From Minisyncoccota bacterium (lineage in GTDB: Bacteria > Patescibacteriota > Minisyncoccia > Phycocordibacterales > UBA918): a DNA stretch of 64,000 nucleotides. The translations under genes were made by a program, and so were the position numbers. Shown piece after piece: positions 380 to 21,747 of this stretch (the first letter of the stretch is position 1; every line of letters starts with the position of its first letter). Where the stretch lies: positions 136,821 to 200,820 of the forward strand of contig JAIPIB010000001.1 in assembly GCA_021734905.1 (NCBI GenBank), given 5' to 3'. The notes beneath the pieces were generated by a model, which was given only the letters and a program-made list of their open reading frames with translations, did no database searches and had not been told where the DNA came from.

Positions 380-1291
380 ATGGAGACACTTGTTCTTGAT
401 GGGAAGAGCTATGTTAAAGCATCGAAAGCTGCGCGGGAACTTGGCTATGCAACCGACTACGTTGGTCAGTTATGTCGTTCAGGTAAGGTTCAAGCTCACT
501 TGATAGGACGTACATGGTATGTGAATCAGAAAGAGCTTAGTACCCACCGTGTTGAGAAGAAACGCATGTCACGGGTTAAGGCGAGAGAGCAAGCGCACAA
601 GTCGATAGAAGAGCACAGAAGAAAGAGATCAGATACTACAAATAACTATAGAAATATAGCTATTCAGTATGAAAGTGATGATGATGATCTCATGCCAATA
701 ACAAAAAAGTTGGTTGTAAAAACGGATGCTAGGCACTCAGAAAACTATAGCAGTGAAGCAGATGAGGGTGATGAAAAAGAGGTTGTAAACAAGGGAGAAA
801 AAGTGATTATGTCCGGCGATGTAACCGTTGTTGATGTTACCGACGGCCCTGTTGATGAAGAATCATTTGTTTTTGAGCTTGTTGAGGAGAAAAAGAAGCG
901 AGAAAAGAAGGTAAAAACTATTGTTCCTGTTGTTGTTGAGGTTGTCGCAGCGCCAAAAAGGAAGGATTTTGCTCAAAAATTGGAGGTGGAAGGGATTGAT
1001 CTTGATGATGAGGAAGGCCGAGATATCAATATAAATGAAGATATTGAGGAGGATGGGTCGCCTCTTTCATTTGAGTCTGAAAAGAAGCCCAGCACAGAAC
1101 AAATTGAGGGAAAGGGGTATCTTTTTCGATATGTTGCGGTATTGTTATTTATTTTGATCATTTCAACAATGAGCCTTGCTCTATCTTTAAAAATGACATA
1201 TTCCGCCGAGGATGACCATCAAACTATTTTTACATTTATATTTTCTCCAAATAGTGCCAGTACTCTTATCCAGAGTAAAATTTTAAACTAA
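380..1291 (+). CDS. Hypothetical protein with an N-terminal excisionase/MerR-type HTH (HTH_17-like), an acidic Lys/Glu/Asp-rich linker and a C-terminal transmembrane anchor.
   Basis: The N-terminus 'KASKAARELGYATDYVGQLCRSGKVQAHLIGRTWYVNQKEL' fits the HTH_17 pattern. The C-terminus 'YLFRYVAVLLFILIISTMSLALSL' is a hydrophobic helix. Confidence 0.5.
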   Translation: METLVLDGKSYVKASKAARELGYATDYVGQLCRSGKVQAHLIGRTWYVNQKELSTHRVEKKRMSRVKAREQAHKSIEEHRRKRSDTTNNYRNIAIQYESDDDDLMPITKKLVVKTDARHSENYSSEADEGDEKEVVNKGEKVIMSGDVTVVDVTDGPVDEESFVFELVEEKKKREKKVKTIVPVVVEVVAAPKRKDFAQKLEVEGIDLDDEEGRDININEDIEEDGSPLSFESEKKPSTEQIEGKGYLFRYVAVLLFILIISTMSLALSLKMTYSAEDDHQTIFTFIFSPNSASTLIQSKILN

Positions 1292-1402: not shown

Positions 1403-4400
1403 GTGGATACATTTTTGGCACATAATAAAGTTGAGGGTAATTCAATCAGGATTTTTTTTAATGCCAGTGTGGTTGGCCGCATATTTTTTTTGGTCTCTTT
1501 TTTCTTCCTCTTCAGCTACTCAGTTTCTTTTGCCTCTGGTGAGGTTGCGACGAGTTCCCTAATGTTCGATAGTACTCAGAGTCAGTATCTTACAAGAACA
1601 GCCGTAACACCTACAGATAATAAAAAGTGGACATATAGTACTTGGGTTAAGCGTGGACAGATAGGTACAGGTGTCCATAATTCTATACTTGGAGCATACA
1701 CAGATGGAAACAACTATGCGAGCATATATTTTGGTTCAGGTGATATGTTGGTTTTTAAACAGGTGTCCGGGGGAGTAAATGCACCGGAAGTAGATTTCAC
1801 ACCTTTGTTTCGAGACCCATCAGCTTGGTACCATGTAGTAGTTGTATATGATTCAGCCAACACGATACAGAGTCATAGGGTAAGAGCTTACGTTAATAAT
1901 GTTGAGTTGATAGAACAAACATTGTATGGGTCAGAGTCACAAAATCAGGCAAGTTTAATCAACTCTGCAATTGCACACACTGTCGGAAGATATGCAGGCG
2001 GTTCTAATTATCATGACGGCTACCTCTCAGACGCATACTTCGTAGACGGACAAGCGCTCAATCCAACTTCTTTTGGTCAAGCAGATTCAAACACCGGTAA
2101 CTGGATACCAAAATCATATGCAGGGACATACGGTACAAACGGCTTCCATATGAAGTTTAGTAGTTCGACCGCTCTCGGAGCGGACTCATCTGGTAATGGA
2201 AATAATTGGACCACCAATGGTGGAATGTCTTCCACTACTAATCAAGTTATTGATACTCCGCTTAATAACTTTGCGACGCTTAATCCAATCGATATGTATC
2301 AATCAGCCGCGATAACAACTTTCAAAGATGGAAATTTGAGAGCTGATGCAAATAATATAGCCCAAGTATCCTATGTTAGAAGTTCAATGGCCATGAAAGG
2401 CCCAACTTATTTTGAATGGACATTAAATTCTTGGTCTAACTCCAGCTACCCTCACGTCGGAATACGCAGTATAAACGAGCCGATGGCATCACCACCAAGT
2501 GATGGTATTAGATATAGTCAAGATGGAACTATAAATAATGGTGGAGGTAATTACACACTAAATGGAGCATCGTTATACACCGCACTATCTACAAATGATA
2601 AAGGGATGATTGCGTTTGACCCAGCGTCTGGAAAGATTTGGATGGGAAGAAATGGTATATGGTTTAATAGTGGCGACCCAGCAAATGGAACTGGTTATGT
2701 TGCTACCTTCCCAGCTAATGGAGAATATACACCATATATACAACTATCAACTGATTCTACAACATTTAATTTCGGCCAACGCCCGTTCACTTACACCCCA
2801 CCAACCGGCTTCAAATCTCTCTCTACTGCAAACTTGCCCACCCCAACTATCCTCAAACCTAATCAGCATTTTGATATAGTAAAGTATTATGCAGAAACAT
2901 CTAACGGAACATATAGTACTGGCACCTTAGCATTCAAACCAGACTTTACTTGGATTAAAAATAGAGATAATGTTGAGAGTCACTATCTAATAGATATAGT
3001 TCGTGGTAATACCAACATGACAAATAAGTTTCTTTCATCTAACAGCACAGGAGCAGAGGGGGCAGGTGGTGTTTCAGGAACGACTTTCAGTGTTACTCCA
3101 ACGGGGTATGAATTTACAGAAAGTAGTATAGGTGCAGGTGAGCTATATTATTCAGGAAGATCTTATGTTGGTTGGAACTGGAAAGCAGGCAACGCAACCA
3201 CCACCAACACAGACGGAACAATTACAAGTACAGTATCTACAAATCCAACAGCTGGGTTCTCGATTGTCTCGTATACAGGGACAGGTGCAAATGCAACAGT
3301 AGGGCATGGATTAGGTTCATCGCCAACTATGATAATACTAAAAAATAGAACTGATGCTTCTACACCGTGGGCAGTTTGGCACTCTGGAATATCAAATACA
3401 GAATATTTATATTTAAATTCTACAAATGCAAAGGCAACAGGTGTAAACTTATGGAATAGTACATCATCTACTCCTACGACATTTAGTGTTGGTAGTTCTC
3501 AAGATACTAATTATAATACAAAAGAATTTATTGCTTATGCCTTCTCTGAGGTCCCTGGTTACTCCAAGTTCGGCACATACACCGGTAATGGAAGCACTGA
3601 TGGTCCGTTTTTGTATACAGGATTTAAACCACGATACATTATGATTAAACGTACTGACGCTGCGGGATATAGTTGGGATACATATGACACATCGCGCTCT
3701 ACATACAATCCTTTAGATCTTCGTGTTTATGCTGATTCGTCTAGCGTAGAAGTTTCTGCGGGGGGAGGTATTGATTCTGTATCGAATGGTTTTAAGATTA
3801 GGACTGCTGGTAATTATGACATTAATTATTCTGGAGGTACCTATATCTACGCCGCCTTTGCTGAGACTACGATGCTACCTACCGCGGAAGACACCTTTCC
3901 ATCGGTGAGTACTCCAATTGTTGTATCTGTACTTGATACTTCGGCAACCTTTGGAGCCACCTTAGACTCAGCAGGTGACAGTCCTGTCACTGCACGTGGA
4001 ATATGTTATGGAACATCACCAGCTCCAACAAACTGTGTTGCTGATAGTGCTACAACAACAGGAGCATACACCAAGTCGATCGCTGGACTTTCGACATCTA
4101 CCACCTATTACTTCAGAGGATACGCAACCAATGCTCGTGGCACATCATATTCAAGTGACGGCTCAACGATGACACTTGCATCGGTCATTACTTTAGCACC
4201 TCACACCCTAAACCAAGTCACCAACACCTTCACTTCCACAAACAAAACAAACACCGAACTCTTCGCATTCAACCTCTCATCAGGTGATGCTGATGTAACC
4301 GGTATAGCTTTCGATCTTCAAGGAATACAGGGGGTAGAAACAGGAGACCTCACTAACTTCGCCCTCTATGAAGACACAAACAATGACAAAACACACGATG

Positions 4401-5377
4401 GTGGAGATATAGCTGTTGGAGGTAGTGGTACTCCCGTAATCAATGGACAGACAGGTACCATTACGTTTGGTACAACATTTAATGTGAGTACTGACACAGA
4501 CTACATCCTTGTGGGAGACATTTCCGATATTAAAGTACAAGACAGTATGACCGTTTCACTTATTGCAACTGACATCACGTCAACAGCAAGTGTTGTTGCA
4601 ACCACATCACCAACAAACATCCAACATATACGTCTTGGTAAGGCGAGTGAGGGAGGAGGTGGAGGAGGTGGTTTTTCAAAACAAATTATTGGCACTGAGG
4701 CACCAGCTGGAGATGGGATACAGTCTGATGGAAGTGAAAATGGAAACGGAGGGTCATCCATCGACCCCAACACCGGCTCCACCATCGGTAACGAACCCGG
4801 TTTCAACGCACCAAGTAACACTGGCACCCCCTATAGCGCATGGACAGCAGGAGCAAACGCATACAGCTCAGACGGTGTATACACCACAACCTCAGCAAGT
4901 AACCAACAATCATATGGAAACTTCAACTTCACAGTCCCTTCAAACAATCAAATCACTGGTATAGCAGTAAAACTCGAAGCCTCAGGCAGTACCGCTGCAG
5001 GCAACATATCAGTCAAACTCTCATGGGATGGAGGCAGTAGTGTCACTGCACTAAAAACTACAGGAACCATGGGACTCACTGACGCAATATATGCGCTCGG
5101 TGGCCCTTCAGATACCTGGGGTCACTCATGGACACCAGCAGAACTCAACAACGGGCTCTTCACCATTGAACTCATTGCAAACCCGAGTGGAAACACCATT
5201 CAGCTTGATGCGGTGCAGGTTAAGGTATTCTACCAAGCAACAGGTGGGGGTAGAGGTGGTGGGGGAATGATATACAACGACCTTGAACCAAAGAACTTCT
5301 TTGCGAATGTGTATTCTGCAGTTGGATGTATGTTTGGCGCCTTTATTGATAGGATGTTTTGGTGGTTGTGGGAGTAA
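1403..5377 (+). CDS. Giant secreted or surface protein (1324 aa). It has an N-terminal signal/TM, several concanavalin-A/LamG-like beta-sandwich modules, FN3-like modules, Gly runs and Thr/Ser/Asn-rich sequence. Probable adhesin.
   Basis: Hydrophobic N-terminus 'IFFLVSFFFLFSYSVSFASG'. LamG-like segment 'AWYHVVVVYDSANTIQSHRVRAYVNNVEL'. FN3-like segment 'ARGICYGTSPAPTN...TYYFRGYATNARGTSYS'. Poly-Gly at aa ~1010 and ~1290. The start codon (GTG at 1403 or TTG at 1415) is uncertain. Confidence 0.6.
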   Translation: MDTFLAHNKVEGNSIRIFFNASVVGRIFFLVSFFFLFSYSVSFASGEVATSSLMFDSTQSQYLTRTAVTPTDNKKWTYSTWVKRGQIGTGVHNSILGAYTDGNNYASIYFGSGDMLVFKQVSGGVNAPEVDFTPLFRDPSAWYHVVVVYDSANTIQSHRVRAYVNNVELIEQTLYGSESQNQASLINSAIAHTVGRYAGGSNYHDGYLSDAYFVDGQALNPTSFGQADSNTGNWIPKSYAGTYGTNGFHMKFSSSTALGADSSGNGNNWTTNGGMSSTTNQVIDTPLNNFATLNPIDMYQSAAITTFKDGNLRADANNIAQVSYVRSSMAMKGPTYFEWTLNSWSNSSYPHVGIRSINEPMASPPSDGIRYSQDGTINNGGGNYTLNGASLYTALSTNDKGMIAFDPASGKIWMGRNGIWFNSGDPANGTGYVATFPANGEYTPYIQLSTDSTTFNFGQRPFTYTPPTGFKSLSTANLPTPTILKPNQHFDIVKYYAETSNGTYSTGTLAFKPDFTWIKNRDNVESHYLIDIVRGNTNMTNKFLSSNSTGAEGAGGVSGTTFSVTPTGYEFTESSIGAGELYYSGRSYVGWNWKAGNATTTNTDGTITSTVSTNPTAGFSIVSYTGTGANATVGHGLGSSPTMIILKNRTDASTPWAVWHSGISNTEYLYLNSTNAKATGVNLWNSTSSTPTTFSVGSSQDTNYNTKEFIAYAFSEVPGYSKFGTYTGNGSTDGPFLYTGFKPRYIMIKRTDAAGYSWDTYDTSRSTYNPLDLRVYADSSSVEVSAGGGIDSVSNGFKIRTAGNYDINYSGGTYIYAAFAETTMLPTAEDTFPSVSTPIVVSVLDTSATFGATLDSAGDSPVTARGICYGTSPAPTNCVADSATTTGAYTKSIAGLSTSTTYYFRGYATNARGTSYSSDGSTMTLASVITLAPHTLNQVTNTFTSTNKTNTELFAFNLSSGDADVTGIAFDLQGIQGVETGDLTNFALYEDTNNDKTHDGGDIAVGGSGTPVINGQTGTITFGTTFNVSTDTDYILVGDISDIKVQDSMTVSLIATDITSTASVVATTSPTNIQHIRLGKASEGGGGGGGFSKQIIGTEAPAGDGIQSDGSENGNGGSSIDPNTGSTIGNEPGFNAPSNTGTPYSAWTAGANAYSSDGVYTTTSASNQQSYGNFNFTVPSNNQITGIAVKLEASGSTAAGNISVKLSWDGGSSVTALKTTGTMGLTDAIYALGGPSDTWGHSWTPAELNNGLFTIELIANPSGNTIQLDAVQVKVFYQATGGGRGGGGMIYNDLEPKNFFANVYSAVGCMFGAFIDRMFWWLWE

Positions 5378-5555: not shown

Positions 5556-6251
5556 ATGAATCACTCACATTTATTATACTCAGCACGAAACGCGTTTGTT
5601 GCGGCTGTACTCATCCTTTCTCTGGGAGTGATTTCATTCTTCGCTTTTGAACCATCAATTGGACGTGCAGTAACAAGCGGTCCGTTTTCTGTTACTCAAG
5701 AAATCACCAATGAGATCTCTTTTCTCGTGAATGCTACAAATGTGACAATGGCAGGTACCATCGCGGGTATTACGGGAGGTTACGCGACTGGTACAACAGT
5801 GGCTGTTGTACGAACGAACAACGCAACTGGTTACAACATGACTCTTGGCTTCAGTAGCACAACAGCAATGAAGCTCAATAATGCGAGTTCGACAATCAGC
5901 AACTACACACCAGCAGTCGGTGGTGTACCTGATTATGGTTGGGTTGATAATTCATCGGGACAGGCAGCTGAATTTGGGTATACGGTACGAGCATCGACCA
6001 CGTCTGAGGTAGACCCGTCGTTCATGAGTAATGGTTCGACACTTTGTAATACGGGCACCACTGAGTCTGACAACAAGTGTTGGCTTAATCCAAATAATAC
6101 ACCAGAGACAATCATCAATACTTCTGGATCTGTCGCTGGATCAACGACGACCATAAAGTTCAAAGTGGCCGTACCTAATGCGCCGTCACCAGCTCTTCCT
6201 TCAGGATTCTATGTTGCAACCGGAACCTTGACCGCAGTCACCAATCCGTAG
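5556..6251 (+). CDS. Small secreted Thr/Gly/Asn-rich beta protein. It is a paralog of 7346-8110 and resembles a WxL-domain cell-surface protein, but the C-terminus ends 'ATGTLTAVTNP' with no Trp.
   Basis: N-terminal TM/signal 'FVAAVLILSLGVISFFAF'. The C-terminus shares the pattern Y-x-G-T-L-T-x-x with the other small gene of the cluster. Operon position matches csc/WxL clusters. Confidence 0.5.
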   Translation: MNHSHLLYSARNAFVAAVLILSLGVISFFAFEPSIGRAVTSGPFSVTQEITNEISFLVNATNVTMAGTIAGITGGYATGTTVAVVRTNNATGYNMTLGFSSTTAMKLNNASSTISNYTPAVGGVPDYGWVDNSSGQAAEFGYTVRASTTSEVDPSFMSNGSTLCNTGTTESDNKCWLNPNNTPETIINTSGSVAGSTTTIKFKVAVPNAPSPALPSGFYVATGTLTAVTNP

Positions 6252-6256
6252 TAAAT

Positions 6257-7342
6257 TTGGGTTTAATTATGTTTACACCTGTGCATCGTACATATGTCTT
6301 TATTACTGTATTGTGTGCACTTCTCTTTACGAGTATATTACCTCACGTAGTACGTGCTCAAGAGGAATCTTTAGACGTTGAGGTACAGTCCATTCAAGAA
6401 AAAATTGACTTTCTTGACTCAAGTGAAGTCGTTTCATTTTTGAATTTATACCCTACAGAGGGTGTCCCTGGAGGTGGAGATATTCTTGGGGATTTTGTTG
6501 TAGGTCCTGGTAAGGTTGATCTAACACTTTCCCCCGGGGAGACGAAAATTGTTGAGATGACGGTCACGAACAGAACAGGTGAACGTCGTCGTTTTAACAT
6601 TACGACTGAGGACGCAGAGGGTTCTCTTGATACAAACACATCGATTGTTCTTCTGGGTGATGACCGAGGGCCATATTCTATGAAGGATTATGTTTCAGTG
6701 TCACATAAAGTATTTGACCTTGAACATAACCAACGTGCACGTATTCCTGTTACCATATCACTCCCTCTCGATGCAGAGCCTGGAGGATTGTATGGGAGTG
6801 TTCTTGTTAATACGATTGCTATTGAGGCTAAACAAGGTGATTCAGGTGGTGCTGTACCACAGTCTGCTATTATTGCGAGAATTGGTACACTCTTTTTTAT
6901 CACGATACCGGGTGCAGCAGAAAAAGAAGGTGGTTTGAAAGATTTTACAACAATAACTAAAAAGATATTTTATCAAAGTAGTCCAATTACGTTTGGTATT
7001 CTCTATGAAAACAATGGCGTGATACACCTTGCACCGTACGGTGAATTGCGAATCAAAAATATGTTTGATGAGGAGGTCGGGTATGTTCAGCTTGATCCAT
7101 GGTTTGTTTTGCCACAGTCGTTACGGCTCCGTGAAGTGTCTTGGGATAGAGACTTTCTCTTTGGCAGATATACTGCGACTGCGTCTATTAATCGTAGCTA
7201 TGATGATGTTGTTGATGAGTTGAGTTATTCATTTTGGATACTGCCATGGAAACCACTAGCACTTACATTTATAGTTCTCTTCATAGTCTTTTTCTCGATA
7301 AAAACATTTTTCAAGCGATTTGAATTTAAACGTAAAACATAA
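6257..7342 (+). CDS. Cell-surface protein with signal peptide, a ~300-aa beta-rich ectodomain and a C-terminal TM with basic tail. The architecture matches DUF916/DUF3324 (WxL-interacting CscA-type) proteins.
   Basis: Signal peptide 'VFITVLCALLFTSILPHVVRAQE'. C-terminal 'WKPLALTFIVLFIVFFSIKTFFKRFEFKRKT'. The family assignment is by architecture only. Confidence 0.5.
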   Translation: MGLIMFTPVHRTYVFITVLCALLFTSILPHVVRAQEESLDVEVQSIQEKIDFLDSSEVVSFLNLYPTEGVPGGGDILGDFVVGPGKVDLTLSPGETKIVEMTVTNRTGERRRFNITTEDAEGSLDTNTSIVLLGDDRGPYSMKDYVSVSHKVFDLEHNQRARIPVTISLPLDAEPGGLYGSVLVNTIAIEAKQGDSGGAVPQSAIIARIGTLFFITIPGAAEKEGGLKDFTTITKKIFYQSSPITFGILYENNGVIHLAPYGELRIKNMFDEEVGYVQLDPWFVLPQSLRLREVSWDRDFLFGRYTATASINRSYDDVVDELSYSFWILPWKPLALTFIVLFIVFFSIKTFFKRFEFKRKT

Positions 7343-7345
7343 ACT

Positions 7346-8110
7346 ATGTGCATTCGTGAAATAATAATCACAGGAGCTGTAGCGGTGATTTTTACGCCAA
7401 TCGCTATGTCTATTTTTGGGATTGCTGGAGCTCAAGTTATGCAAAGTAGCGGATATCGTATTCAGAGTGACAGCATTAATTTTGGCGGAGGATTATCAAC
7501 ATCGACAAATTATGCATTAGAAGCGACAGCAGGAGAGGTTGCATCAGGGGACGGCGCAAGCGCGAGTTTTAATATAAGGGCTGGATATCAGCAGATGGTC
7601 AATTCGTTCATCTCCATATCTGCAGCATCTTCGGTAACGATGACTCCGTCGATTCCGGGTGTTTCAGGTGGTATAGCGAATGGCTCAACATCAGTGACGA
7701 TCATCACTGATAGTGCTGCTGGATATCAACTTACAATTGCAGCATCACAAAGTCCAGCATTAACTAATCTTGGTAATTCAATAGCAGATTATGTTCCTAG
7801 CGGGAATCCAGATTTCTCTTTTATTACGGGAGCAAGTGATTCTCATTTTGGGTATTCTCCATCAGGTGTCGATATCGTTGATCGATTCAAGGATAATGGG
7901 GCTGTGTGCGGTGGGGGAGGAGGTGAGGTCGCTCTTGCATGCTGGGACGGTCTAAGTACGGATGACGTTCCTATTGCACGGTCATCATCTGCCAATACAC
8001 CAAATGGTGCAACGACAACGGTATATTTTAGGGTTGGTGTAGGGGGCTCCGTTGTGCAGACCGGCGGGACATATACTGCCACGACAACACTTACTGCAGT
8101 ATCATTATGA
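7346..8110 (+). CDS. Small secreted Thr/Gly-rich beta protein, paralog of 5556-6251 (WxL-like, ends 'TYTATTTLTAVSL').
   Basis: N-terminal TM 'IIITGAVAVIFTPIAMSIFGIAGA'. C-terminal 'GGTYTATTTLTAVSL' parallels 'GFYVATGTLTAVTNP' of the first paralog. The gene ends with TGA and overlaps the next gene by 4 nt. Confidence 0.5.
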   Translation: MCIREIIITGAVAVIFTPIAMSIFGIAGAQVMQSSGYRIQSDSINFGGGLSTSTNYALEATAGEVASGDGASASFNIRAGYQQMVNSFISISAASSVTMTPSIPGVSGGIANGSTSVTIITDSAAGYQLTIAASQSPALTNLGNSIADYVPSGNPDFSFITGASDSHFGYSPSGVDIVDRFKDNGAVCGGGGGEVALACWDGLSTDDVPIARSSSANTPNGATTTVYFRVGVGGSVVQTGGTYTATTTLTAVSL

Positions 8111-9675
8111 CCGATATAATACGTAAAACATCTGTATATCTATTTTTATCTATCTTCATATTTTTTAGTTTTATATTTCCTACACACCATGTTGATGCAG
8201 TAACAGATGACTTCACTGTCCGCACCCTTGTCGGGGGCGATACGACACCACCTTCTGTTCCGAGTGCATTAGTCGCTACTCCGGTTGCTGTGTCGCAGAT
8301 TGATCTTGTATGGGCTAGTTCTACTGATGACTATATATTGTCTGGATATAACGTATGGAGAGGCGACTCTATTATTGCAACAACAACTCTGACAACATAT
8401 TCAGACGTTGGGCTCACTGCGAGCACGACGTATAGCTATTATGTAACCGCGTTTGACTCGTCTGGTAATGTGTCAGCCTCCTCAACCATTGTCAGTGCAA
8501 CAACTCTAAGTCCTGCACCAGCAGCTGCTGTGTCAGGTCAAACGTATGGCAGTTACGTAAGGCAACTTGGTGACGAAATTATTTCGCTCGAAATATTTCC
8601 GCAACGAAATTCTGTGAATTTTAAGTACGAGACAAGAGGAAACATTCGAACAGCTATTCGATGGGGAAGGACAGATTCCTATGAACTTGGGTCTCTTGTT
8701 GAAAGCACTTTTAAGAAAGGACATGACACAGAAATCACTGGACTCATTCCAAATACAAAATACACATTTCAGATTGAAGGTGAAAATGGGTTTGGAAATT
8801 ATGGATTGATACATAATGGAACATTTCAGACACTTCCTCCTGAAGATATTTTTCCTCCAGGAAACGTGACGAATCTTAGACTACGAAAAGAAGATGGAGG
8901 AAATACACTGTCGTGGATAAACCCGAAAGACCCAGATCTTGTAAAAATTCGCGTCGTCAGGAGTGATCGGTTCTATCCGAGTGACATCGCGGATGGGTGG
9001 GTTATTTATGAGGGTCTCGGTACAGAGGTGTATGACGCTGGCGTCGCAAGCAGCTCGAGGCAATATTATTCTGTTTTTACTTATGATGAACTCGGTAATG
9101 TCTCTTCTGGAGCAGTCATTGCGACGCCAAGAATAGAAAAAGACGAAGAAACTAAGAATGAAATTGATCCTACAATAAATCTTATATCGTTACGATTTGA
9201 TGGTATGGTATTTACTCAAGAAGGGAGCTTACTTCCTATTAAAGATGGAAGCGTTAGAATTGACGGCTCGAAACTTCTTACTATATCTATACCGTATGAG
9301 CAGGTTCCGGAACATCTAAAGACAATACTGGTAACGGTGATTGACAGTAGAGACCATGGTCGCGAGTTCTCTTTTTTGCTTCGCGTCAATGCAGATAAAA
9401 CTATGTATAGCGGCACACTTTCGCCATTTGGAACGACGGGTGATTTTCCTTTACGAGTGACAATTTTTGATTTTAAGACAGAGCAGATCGGATACACCGA
9501 CGGTGTCATTGCTTCCTATGTAAGCCCAATACACTCTGGATTAAGCTCAGAGGGGTTTTTTAGCTCGATAGTTCGATTTATATCATCTGGAGATGGTATG
9601 TACTCGATATGGTTTATTGTCCTCCTCATCCTTCTTCTTTATTTTGGGCGACGACTTGTACGAACACAGTGGTGA
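8107..9675 (+). CDS. Membrane-anchored surface protein with a signal peptide, two fibronectin type III-like domains and a C-terminal TM.
   Basis: FN3-like module 1 'PSVPSALVATPVAVSQIDLVWASS...YSYYVTAFDSSGNVS'. FN3-like module 2 'PPGNVTNLRLRKEDGGNTLSWINP...YYSVFTYDELGNVS'. C-terminal 'IWFIVLLILLLYFGRRLVRTQW'. Confidence 0.55.
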   Translation: MTDIIRKTSVYLFLSIFIFFSFIFPTHHVDAVTDDFTVRTLVGGDTTPPSVPSALVATPVAVSQIDLVWASSTDDYILSGYNVWRGDSIIATTTLTTYSDVGLTASTTYSYYVTAFDSSGNVSASSTIVSATTLSPAPAAAVSGQTYGSYVRQLGDEIISLEIFPQRNSVNFKYETRGNIRTAIRWGRTDSYELGSLVESTFKKGHDTEITGLIPNTKYTFQIEGENGFGNYGLIHNGTFQTLPPEDIFPPGNVTNLRLRKEDGGNTLSWINPKDPDLVKIRVVRSDRFYPSDIADGWVIYEGLGTEVYDAGVASSSRQYYSVFTYDELGNVSSGAVIATPRIEKDEETKNEIDPTINLISLRFDGMVFTQEGSLLPIKDGSVRIDGSKLLTISIPYEQVPEHLKTILVTVIDSRDHGREFSFLLRVNADKTMYSGTLSPFGTTGDFPLRVTIFDFKTEQIGYTDGVIASYVSPIHSGLSSEGFFSSIVRFISSGDGMYSIWFIVLLILLLYFGRRLVRTQW

Positions 9676-21673: not shown

Positions 21674-21747
21674 GCCACCTTAGCTCAGCTGGTTAGAGCA
21701 ACGGTTTTGTAAACCGTAGGTCCTCGGTTCGAATCCGAGAGGTGGCT
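21674..21747 (+). tRNA. tRNA-Thr, anticodon UGU.
   Basis: Manual cloverleaf: acceptor gccacct/aggtggc, D-arm gctc-agctggtta-gagc, anticodon stem acggt/accgt with loop 'tttgtaa' (anticodon TGT), T-arm ctcgg-ttcgaat-ccgag, discriminator U. CCA is not encoded. Confidence 0.8.

Follow-up and report, generated by a model that had tools for sequence, protein, structure and literature searches.

A four-gene operon of Patescibacteria coding for a DUF916 homologue with a pilus-chaperone-like fold and two pilin-like candidate subunits

Organization and conservation of the operon

Four co-directional and closely spaced open reading frames (ORFs) lie on the + strand of a 64,000-nucleotide stretch (referred to as the window in the rest of the text) of contig JAIPIB010000001.1, which comes from a bacterium of the phylum Minisyncoccota, i.e. 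of the Candidate Phyla Radiation (CPR)/Patescibacteria. ORF1 (5556..6251, 231 amino acids [aa]) codes for P1, a small secreted protein with a pilin-like beta domain. ORF2 (6257..7342, 361 aa from TTG) codes for a membrane-anchored chaperone candidate of the DUF916/WxLIP (CscA) family. ORF3 (7346..8110, 254 aa) codes for P3, a PamT-like pilin in which a conserved linker follows the signal peptide and precedes a pilin-like beta domain, and ORF4 (8107..9675, 522 aa) codes for an FN3-repeat protein that ends with a transmembrane (TM) helix and a basic tail. The initial annotation of this stretch had given the same four ORFs and coordinates, with gaps of 5 nucleotides (nt) between ORF1 and ORF2 and 3 nt between ORF2 and ORF3 and a 4-nt overlap of ORF3 and ORF4, all of which we confirmed. 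Translation of ORF2 probably begins at an ATG (6269) and not at the mechanical TTG start (6257). Since both the family consensus (start 'MFxxVHR') and the 357-aa protein recorded at NCBI begin at this ATG, the gap between ORF1 and ORF2 more probably measures 17 nt. ORF3 follows in the frame of ORF2, with only TAA and ACT between the two (7340-7348). Hydropathy revealed N-terminal signal peptides in all four proteins, and the topologies proposed initially (signal peptides, a TM helix with a basic tail in the ORF2 product, an FN3 membrane protein encoded by ORF4) hold, as does the description of the two small secreted proteins as T/G-rich, their composition being T/S/G-rich. A scan of the window for promoters and terminators yielded nothing beyond the shuffled expectation, and the boundaries of the operon therefore rest on spacing and synteny. 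The exact proteins are recorded from a 'Candidatus Pacebacteria bacterium' metagenome-assembled genome (locus tags K9M10_00650/00660), so that the organism is indeed outside the Firmicutes, as had been supposed.

Relatives were found in 155 species-representative genomes by a scan of one genome per species with the ORF3 family as the query, which yielded close relatives only. We scored 81 related loci with family hidden Markov models, and the order P1-chaperone-P3-FN3 was intact in 70 of them and present in two more with split ORFs (~72/81), the loci without the full order being cut by contig ends. ORF4 is always the fourth gene across related loci. Hence the synteny in other Patescibacteria that had been put forward as a check of the initial annotation exists, and the four-gene arrangement is far beyond chance. 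The operon is usually followed by the GAPDH gene, and gapdh, rpiB, rpe and tkt adjoin it in most loci. The best 80 loci carry the labels Paceibacterota, Kaiserbacteria, Parcubacteria, Nomurabacteria and Taylorbacteria, or the generic 'uncultured Saccharibacteria'. Many loci among L003-L080 are labelled 'uncultured Candidatus Saccharibacteria' while coding for proteins 50-70% identical to those of the Paceibacteria type next to the same housekeeping neighbours, and these labels look generic. One locus (L057) carries the label Acidimicrobiales, probably because a CPR contig was mis-binned. Clustered at 90% identity, the families comprise 1559 (ORF3), 1612 (ORF2) and at least 260 (ORF1) clusters. 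An exhaustive profile search (E <= 1e-3) extended the ORF3 family to a wider superfamily of 1517 clusters at 50% identity.

The DUF916 protein, the pilin-like subunits and their fusions

The product of ORF2 matches the Pfam family DUF916 (PF06030) with a score of 27.7 bits, for a gathering score of 27.3, and the same model matches all 65 members of the ORF2 family (best E = 5e-10). NCBI also names it a DUF916 protein. Among PDB sequences, the ORF2-family (A2) profile retrieved EfmWxLIP1 at E = 3.7e-5. We then compared the family by hhalign with a Firmicutes reference set of ten WxLIPs and 18 WxL domains harvested from Firmicutes plasmids, and obtained 96.2% probability (E = 2.7e-9) with the ten WxLIPs across the DUF916 domain (WxLIP_PGBD), which occupies residues 88-184 (6518..6808). 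The layout and size are likewise those of WxLIP/CscA proteins, i.e. a signal peptide, ~320-380 aa and a C-terminal TM helix (size range from PMC1534035). This helix spans residues ~331-359 (7247..7333) according to both hydropathy and the structural model and is followed by the basic tail KRFEFKRKT. The CscA-type DUF916/DUF3324 layout claimed initially thus stands for DUF916. It does not for DUF3324 (PF11797), which matched none of the 65 family members and is undetectable by sequence, the second domain of ORF2 aligning to the second domain of the WxLIPs with a probability of 1% by hhalign.

In the AlphaFold2 (AF2) model of the ORF2 product (mean predicted local distance difference test score [pLDDT] 84.6), two immunoglobulin (Ig)-like beta-sandwiches precede the TM helix (331-359). 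The top Foldseek matches of this model are the solved Enterococcus faecium WxLIP structures 9i1y and 9i25_C (E ~1e-12), including an entry 'bound to long WxL', with an alignment of ~270 columns that covers both domains. RbmA and the chaperones CfaA, CsuC, CupB2, Caf1M, FimC and DraB come next, at 1e-9 to 1e-6. This likeness is at the fold level only, as neither ORF2 nor the ORF2 family matches the PapD-family Pfam models (PF00345/PF02753). ORF2 therefore codes for a genuine DUF916/WxLIP (CscA) homologue with a pilus-chaperone-like fold.

Judging by invariant columns, the most invariant stretch of the ORF2 product is PQSAxxARIGTLFFxTxPG (residues 201-219; 6857..6913). Within it, a long low-confidence loop ends and the last strand of domain 1 follows, with alternating hydrophobics. 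The pLDDT of the model dips at 181-210, and a strand is present at 208-217. In PapD-type chaperones, the G1 strand acts as the donor. In WxLIPs, a hairpin has been predicted that, in parallel orientation, 'completes the WxL beta-sandwich' (PMC10599100). By analogy with this hairpin and with the PapD-type G1 strand, residues 201-219 are the candidate donor (G1-like) strand.

P1 and P3 are paralogous, as had been noted initially (BLASTP 32% identity, E = 1e-16; hhalign of the two families 99.9%, E = 9e-31), and the window contains no further P1/P3 paralogues. Their extreme C-termini, correctly quoted in the initial annotation as 'FYVATGTLTAVTNP' and 'GGTYTATTTLTAVSL', had been read as those of Trp-less WxL proteins. 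WxL domains contain two Trp-x-Leu motifs on adjacent strands, with the distal one in the context 'Y-x-T-T-L-T-W-x-L-x-D-x-P'. The C-terminal hairpins are similar by eye ('IKFKVAVP...Y-V-A-T-G-T-L-T-A' compared to 'I-x-L-x-V-P...Y-x-T-T-L-T-W-x-L' in WxL). No Trp is found in a WxL context in either protein, the Trp residues of P1 being in 'YGWVDN' and 'CWLNP' and that of P3 in 'CWDG'. The WxL model PF13731 matched neither P1, nor P3, nor any of the 137 members of their families (67 + 70), even at E <= 10. Comparison by hhalign of the A1, A3 and broader CPR profiles with 13-18 Firmicutes WxL domains, with reversed and FN3 controls and a column-shuffle null, gave probabilities of at most 4.6%, not above the FN3 control, and the real profile scores (15.0 and 14.5) fell inside the column-shuffled null (12.8 ± 2.0). 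The WxL profile itself is valid, as it finds 9i25_A, a 'WxL domain surface protein', at E = 6e-7. This solved WxL chain, which was in the library, does not rank among the 50 best structures that Foldseek matched to the ORF3 model, no direct superposition of the two having been made. We thus rejected WxL homology of ORF1 and ORF3 on the combined results of Pfam on the 137 members, hhalign, the broader profile, the controls and the shuffle null. The C-terminal likeness is statistically indistinguishable from composition and is a lead, not evidence. The genomic context of P1/P3-type subunits is that of the WxL family: they adjoin a DUF916 gene and come as small and as large forms whose module is C-terminal.

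The alternative mentioned in the initial annotation, that the two small proteins belong to a known pilin family, proved closer to the truth, since they fall in a large superfamily of CPR proteins that is matched by the PamT model and is similar to donor-strand pilins. P3 matches the NCBIfam model NF058579 ('CPR-type pilus protein PamT') with 32 bits (E = 6.6e-8; equivalog cutoff 240 bits), and this model matches all 67 members of the ORF3 family below the cutoff (best E = 6.4e-14), which indicates distant homology to PamT, not orthology. In the AF2 model, residues 85-254 (7598..8107) form a pilin-like beta domain with a pLDDT above 90 that ends with the C-terminal strand 'GTYTATTTLTA', and residues 29-84 score below 50. 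The top Foldseek matches of this model are the pilin domains of PapG, PapE, CfaB and FimA, the TasA fibre, TLP-1b and cannulae, all of which are donor-strand fibre subunits. Searches of the PDB sequences with ORF3 or its profile returned only marginal filamin and ABC-binding-protein noise, which we discarded.

The low-confidence region of P3 contains the N-terminal linker (residues 31-84, VMQSSGYRIQSDSINFGGGLSTSTNYALEATAGE...FNIRAGYQQM; 7436..7597), a candidate donor-strand region whose motif is confined to P3 genes. Conservation of this linker exceeds that of the folded domain both in the close family (0.82 vs 0.75) and among diverse representatives (0.56 vs 0.52). This agrees with the preprint on the Pam pilus, in which the donated linker is described as the part conserved best (bioRxiv 10.64898/2026.03.03.709456). 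In P1, most of the linker is gone and one short N-terminal strand, 'GPFSVTQEIT', is left, while the C-terminal hairpin is conserved and common to P1 and P3. The ORF1 family goes unmatched by the PamT model because the match lies in the signal peptide, the linker and the domain's first strands. The Caf1-subunit model gave weak sub-threshold matches in 28 of the 70 P1-family members. We consider P3 a candidate polymerising or stalk subunit and P1 a candidate cap/tip or adaptor subunit.

The product of ORF4 contains matches to the fn3 domain, a TM helix at ~497-519 (nt ~9595-9663) and a basic tail. It also has a short conserved N-terminal strand, 'DDFTVRT', and hhalign aligned the N-terminus of the ORF1 family with that of the ORF4 family (43%, E = 2.5e-4). 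This protein is a candidate base or anchor, which would be PamR-like and a functional analogue of CscD and TafF.

We carried out an architecture census on the 150 best representative clusters of the 1517 in the wider superfamily. Stand-alone P3-like pilins make up 100 of these clusters. In 23 others, an N-terminal LamG/ConA-like, DUF2341, CBM, H-lectin or toxin receptor-binding domain is directly followed by the linker and the pilin domain. A large insertion separates the linker from the pilin domain in 10 clusters, FN3 repeats are joined to the pilin in a single one, and 16 are in-frame chaperone-P3 fusions. Insertions of a 150-350 aa domain between the linker motif and the pilin domain were seen in P0381, P0418, P0401, P0438 and P0463, FN3 repeats are fused to the pilin module in P0456 (1205 aa), and P0440 reaches 2187 aa. 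The PamT model matches 38 of 47 long relatives. A first reading of all long relatives as lectin-pilin fusions was dropped when 16 proved to be chaperone-pilin fusions. The arrangement of N-terminal domain, linker and C-terminal domain in the lectin-bearing relatives also characterises PamA/B, the two-domain adhesins FimH and PapG and the 'large WxL'/CscC proteins. The TafC model matched 7 of the 47 long relatives, and these matches coincide with the LamG-containing ones. We did not take them as pilin homology, as they probably reflect the shared LamG domain.

We checked the chaperone-P3 fusions at the DNA level in two loci, L092 (386-2140) and L093 (367-2031). At the junction, the chaperone TM helix is followed by a K/R loop, the P3 signal peptide, an AxA site and the linker, an order from which the polyprotein would be predicted to insert correctly and to be cleaved into two normal products. 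Read as Rosetta-stone evidence, these natural fusions argue that the chaperone and P3 act together.

Donor-strand assembly compared with other surface systems

On balance, we think that the operon probably codes for a compact, usher-less, chaperone-assisted donor-strand system that builds a membrane-anchored fibre or stalk, and that it is a minimal relative of the Pam pilus. All four proteins would be exported through Sec, as shown by their signal peptides. Held in the membrane by its C-terminal helix, the ORF2 product would lend a beta-strand to the incomplete Ig-like domains of P1 and P3, a step suggested by the WxLIP homology, by the fold similarity to PapD/CfaA/Caf1M-type chaperones and by the natural chaperone-P3 fusions. 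The linker of P3 would then displace the chaperone strand in the preceding subunit, thereby joining P3 to P1 and possibly P3 to P3. P1, which has only a vestigial linker, may be the distal cap or an adaptor. The N-terminal strand of ORF4 would end the chain, and its FN3 stalk and TM helix would tie the fibre to the membrane. P3 may either form long homopolymers or be limited to a short P1-P3-ORF4 stalk. The structure probably serves for adhesion to host cells or to surfaces, because relatives fuse lectin-type domains to the same linker-plus-pilin module.

Like the operon, the Pam pilus of Candidatus Mycosynbacter amalyticus (Saccharimonadia) is CPR-specific and consists of Sec-exported Ig-like pilins (Troman et al., bioRxiv 10.64898/2026.03.03.709456). 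A tail-fibre-like protein, reported there as a conserved pam neighbour, is also encoded next to the operon. PamC/D are PapD/FimC-like chaperones with a C-terminal TM helix, and ORF2, likened to them by description, has a chaperone-like fold and such a helix. PamR, the proposed terminator or anchor, has an FN3 (RbmA-like) domain, a C-terminal TM helix and an extra N-terminal strand; ORF4 has fn3 domains, a C-terminal TM helix and a short conserved N-terminal segment. PamT, whose NCBIfam model is matched by all ORF3-family members, has a single domain. In Pam pilins, the truncated Ig-like C-terminal domain is completed by a conserved linker strand, and in P3 too a linker precedes the pilin domain.

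Several points weigh against a Pam-like fibre. The PamT match reaches 32 bits compared to 240 and does not extend past the first strands that follow the signal peptide and the linker. Another Pam model, CPR_Pam_pilin_C (NF058581), matches neither ORF1 nor ORF3 and is weakly matched by only 2 of the 47 long relatives. The P1 family, ORF2 and ORF4 match none of the NCBIfam Pam models, and ORF4 is longer than PamR. The Foldseek matches of the ORF3 model to pilin domains are weak (E >= 5e-3, TM-score <= 0.53). The operon has four genes only, with a single chaperone and no two-domain PamA/B/E pilin, P1 and P3 being the only pilin-like proteins in the window. It belongs to Parcubacteria/Paceibacteria-type organisms, not to Saccharimonadia or Microgenomatia, in which Pam pilins are mainly found according to the preprint (bioRxiv 10.64898/2026.03.03.709456). 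The ATP synthase, the other conserved pam neighbour, is absent from the window according to a motif scan. PamT has been proposed as a non-polymerising tip, and the Pam model itself comes from a preprint whose assembly pathway is largely AlphaFold-based (bioRxiv 10.64898/2026.03.03.709456). For the proteins of the operon, strand donation and polymerisation are inferred.

A possible alternative, which we consider clearly less probable, is a non-polymerising complex of the Csc/WxL type in which the DUF916 scaffold permanently holds one P1 and one P3 at the membrane or wall, ORF4 is an extra anchor, and the exposed surfaces bind for adhesion or polysaccharide capture without any fibre. In csc clusters, CscA is the DUF916/DUF3324 WxLIP, CscB and CscC are small and large WxL proteins and CscD is a small LPXTG protein. 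The homologous DUF916 protein of these Firmicutes clusters equals ORF2 in size and in layout, with a signal peptide, two Ig domains and a TM helix. Enterococcal clusters have the same gene order, i.e. a small subunit, the DUF916 protein and a second subunit, and code for proteins of similar size (PMC1534035). Subunits of ~230-250 aa and a separate anchoring protein are common to both systems, and both families include large forms with N-terminal ConA/LamG-type lectin domains and the module at the extreme C-terminus. As proposed for ORF2, a strand of the DUF916 protein is predicted to complete the sandwich of the subunit. A stable association of WxLIP with WxL has been described (PMC10599100), the solved structure 9i25 shows the two in complex, PamT-like proteins are proposed not to polymerise, and the chaperone-P3 fusions fit a permanent 1:1 complex equally well. 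However, the subunits of the operon lack both WxL motifs and any significant profile similarity to WxL domains, and the nearest folds of P1 and P3 are those of polymerising donor-strand subunits. The conserved yet disordered linker of P3 would have no obvious role in a static heterotrimer, and in the relatives it sits where the donated strand of PamA/B does. Moreover, the internal signal peptide and cleavage site of the fusions imply release of P3 from the chaperone. The operon further differs from csc/WxL clusters in that DUF3324 is undetectable by sequence, that the anchor is an FN3-TM protein instead of a sortase substrate, and that the organisms are Patescibacteria. The initial proposal of a csc/WxL-like surface complex is thus borne out for the DUF916 homology and the cluster architecture and not for DUF3324 or the WxL identity of the subunits. 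In its working the operon resembles a csc/WxL cluster, to which it is in part related, with subunits that are not recognisable WxL proteins.

The first gene of the enterococcal WxL clusters L082, L085, L087 and L089 (Enterococcus plasmids) codes for a very small LPXTG protein, the mature part of which opens with a beta-strand-like segment, e.g. 'EGSIGFTGVYEP' or 'GVTAFYGKYEYP'. This short segment could be a strand donor analogous to the N-terminus of ORF4. One enterococcal WxL cluster has its own class A sortase.

The chaperone-assisted assembly that we favour also has counterparts in chaperone-usher pili (Fim, Pap, CFA/I, Csu, Caf1), which combine a chaperone of two-Ig-domain fold with pilin-like incomplete-Ig subunits, as predicted here. 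Both follow a logic in which a two-domain adhesin (lectin plus pilin), a polymerising subunit extended at its N-terminus and a terminator are combined, and both have a conserved C-terminal strand right at the C-terminus of the subunit. Unlike these systems, the operon contains no usher-sized gene and occurs in organisms without an outer membrane, its chaperone is membrane-tethered and matches no PapD Pfam model, and the extension is ~50 residues long compared to ~15. The likeness is at the fold level, and weak for the subunits.

A chaperone-free, self-assembling matrix fibre like TasA/TapA or the archaeal tafi, in which ORF2 would merely code for another surface Ig-domain protein, seems unlikely to us. 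The TasA fibre, TLP-1b and archaeal cannulae are among the structural matches of ORF3, and TasA homologues were reported in Patescibacteria (PMC9245690). Tafi (TafC/TafE/TafA/TafF) and related archaeal donor-strand filaments belong to single-membrane organisms and have a LamG-bearing tip, small Ig-like shaft subunits joined by N-terminal donor strands and a subunit-like anchor with a C-terminal TM helix (PMC11821415), a logic of tip, shaft and TM anchor that the operon shares, and the TafC model matches the 7 long relatives mentioned above. Yet these TafC matches probably reflect the lectin domain. Tafi are chaperone-free and depend on the Tat pathway and on a signal peptidase of their own, with no sequence relationship to the operon shown beyond the lectin domain. 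PF12389 (Peptidase_M73/TasA) was unmatched in the family scans (for the P1 family, among the top 25 of 35 families), and a crude motif test found no SipW-like peptidase in the window. The strict co-occurrence of ORF2 with P3, their fusion and the chaperone-like fold also argue for ORF2 being part of the mechanism. Motifs and Pfam matches led us to reject sortase-dependent, type IV pilus and TasA/SipW readings: a motif scan of the window ORFs found no sortase, LPXTG, TLxTC, prepilin, pilus-ATPase or ATP-synthase Walker motifs, and in contrast to sortase-assembled pili, the subunits stop right after the last beta-strand. Overall, the operon resembles in its logic a Pam pilus, a csc/WxL cluster and a chaperone-usher pilus that lacks the usher. 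Family membership is established only for the DUF916 component, with scores below the equivalog cutoff for PamT and no match to the WxL, DUF3324, PapD and TasA domain models.

Most CPR/Patescibacteria are uncultivated episymbionts, and little is known about the machinery with which they attach. The description of the Pam pilus dates only from 2026, and the operon extends such systems, in a stripped-down form, to at least 155 species-level lineages of the Parcubacteria/Paceibacteria type. What is new is the minimal four-gene form with single-domain pilins and the DUF916 protein, which connects CPR pili with Gram-positive WxL clusters and is the first sequence-level bridge from a CPR pilus-type operon to them. 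The Pam preprint does not mention DUF916 or WxL (bioRxiv 10.64898/2026.03.03.709456), and we found no link between DUF916/WxLIP and pilus chaperones or Pam in the searchable literature. How csc/WxL clusters work has been a matter of debate since 2006, and this bridge suggests the testable idea that DUF916 proteins are strand-donating chaperones. More tentatively, and with considerable doubt, one may imagine that Csc/WxL clusters, CPR Pam pili and the four-gene operon are one ancient family of usher-less donor-strand surface systems with a membrane-tethered chaperone, in which DUF916/WxLIP proteins are pilus-type chaperones, WxL proteins are pilin-like or pilin-derived, and P3 is polymerised through its linker of ~50 residues into a thin, hitherto unseen fibre on Paceibacteria-type cells. 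If so, the operon would be a 'missing link' among the surface systems of bacteria without an outer membrane. The chaperone-pilin fusions and the lectin-fused relatives provide ready-made constructs and predictions for experiments.

Genes next to the operon

Directly upstream of the operon, a gene on the + strand (1403..5377) codes for a 1324-aa tail-fibre-like surface protein of the DUF7483 type (PF24299, E = 1e-104) that also matches PHROG 19943 ('virion structural protein', E = 1e-171) and PHROG 24898 ('tail fiber', E = 2e-65). The protein is anchored at its N-terminus, and its C-terminus is Gly-rich and hydrophobic. The gene is facultative and lies outside the conserved core: a tail-fibre-like protein is encoded directly upstream in 21 of the 48 loci with sufficient upstream sequence, and in locus L001 a Bro-N protein takes the place of the giant protein. 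Further upstream in the window (380-1291), a 303-aa ORF codes for a protein that starts with a weak HTH_17 (excisionase-like) domain, continues with a long acidic stretch of low complexity and has a hydrophobic segment in its C-terminal part.

That the operon is a phage-derived or phage-related module, e.g. a receptor-binding or superinfection-exclusion structure carried along with the giant protein, is very unlikely despite these PHROG matches and the weak HTH_17 and Bro-N genes upstream in the window and in L001, given its fixed chromosomal position beside gapdh, rpiB, rpe and tkt in most loci, its occurrence with or without the giant protein, the fact that PHROG families can contain host-like genes, and the lack of any other phage gene, integrase or repeat among the features noted. 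We rejected a prophage on the same conserved chromosomal context. Elsewhere in the 64 kb, one tRNA gene (21674-21747) is the sole Rfam match at the gathering threshold.

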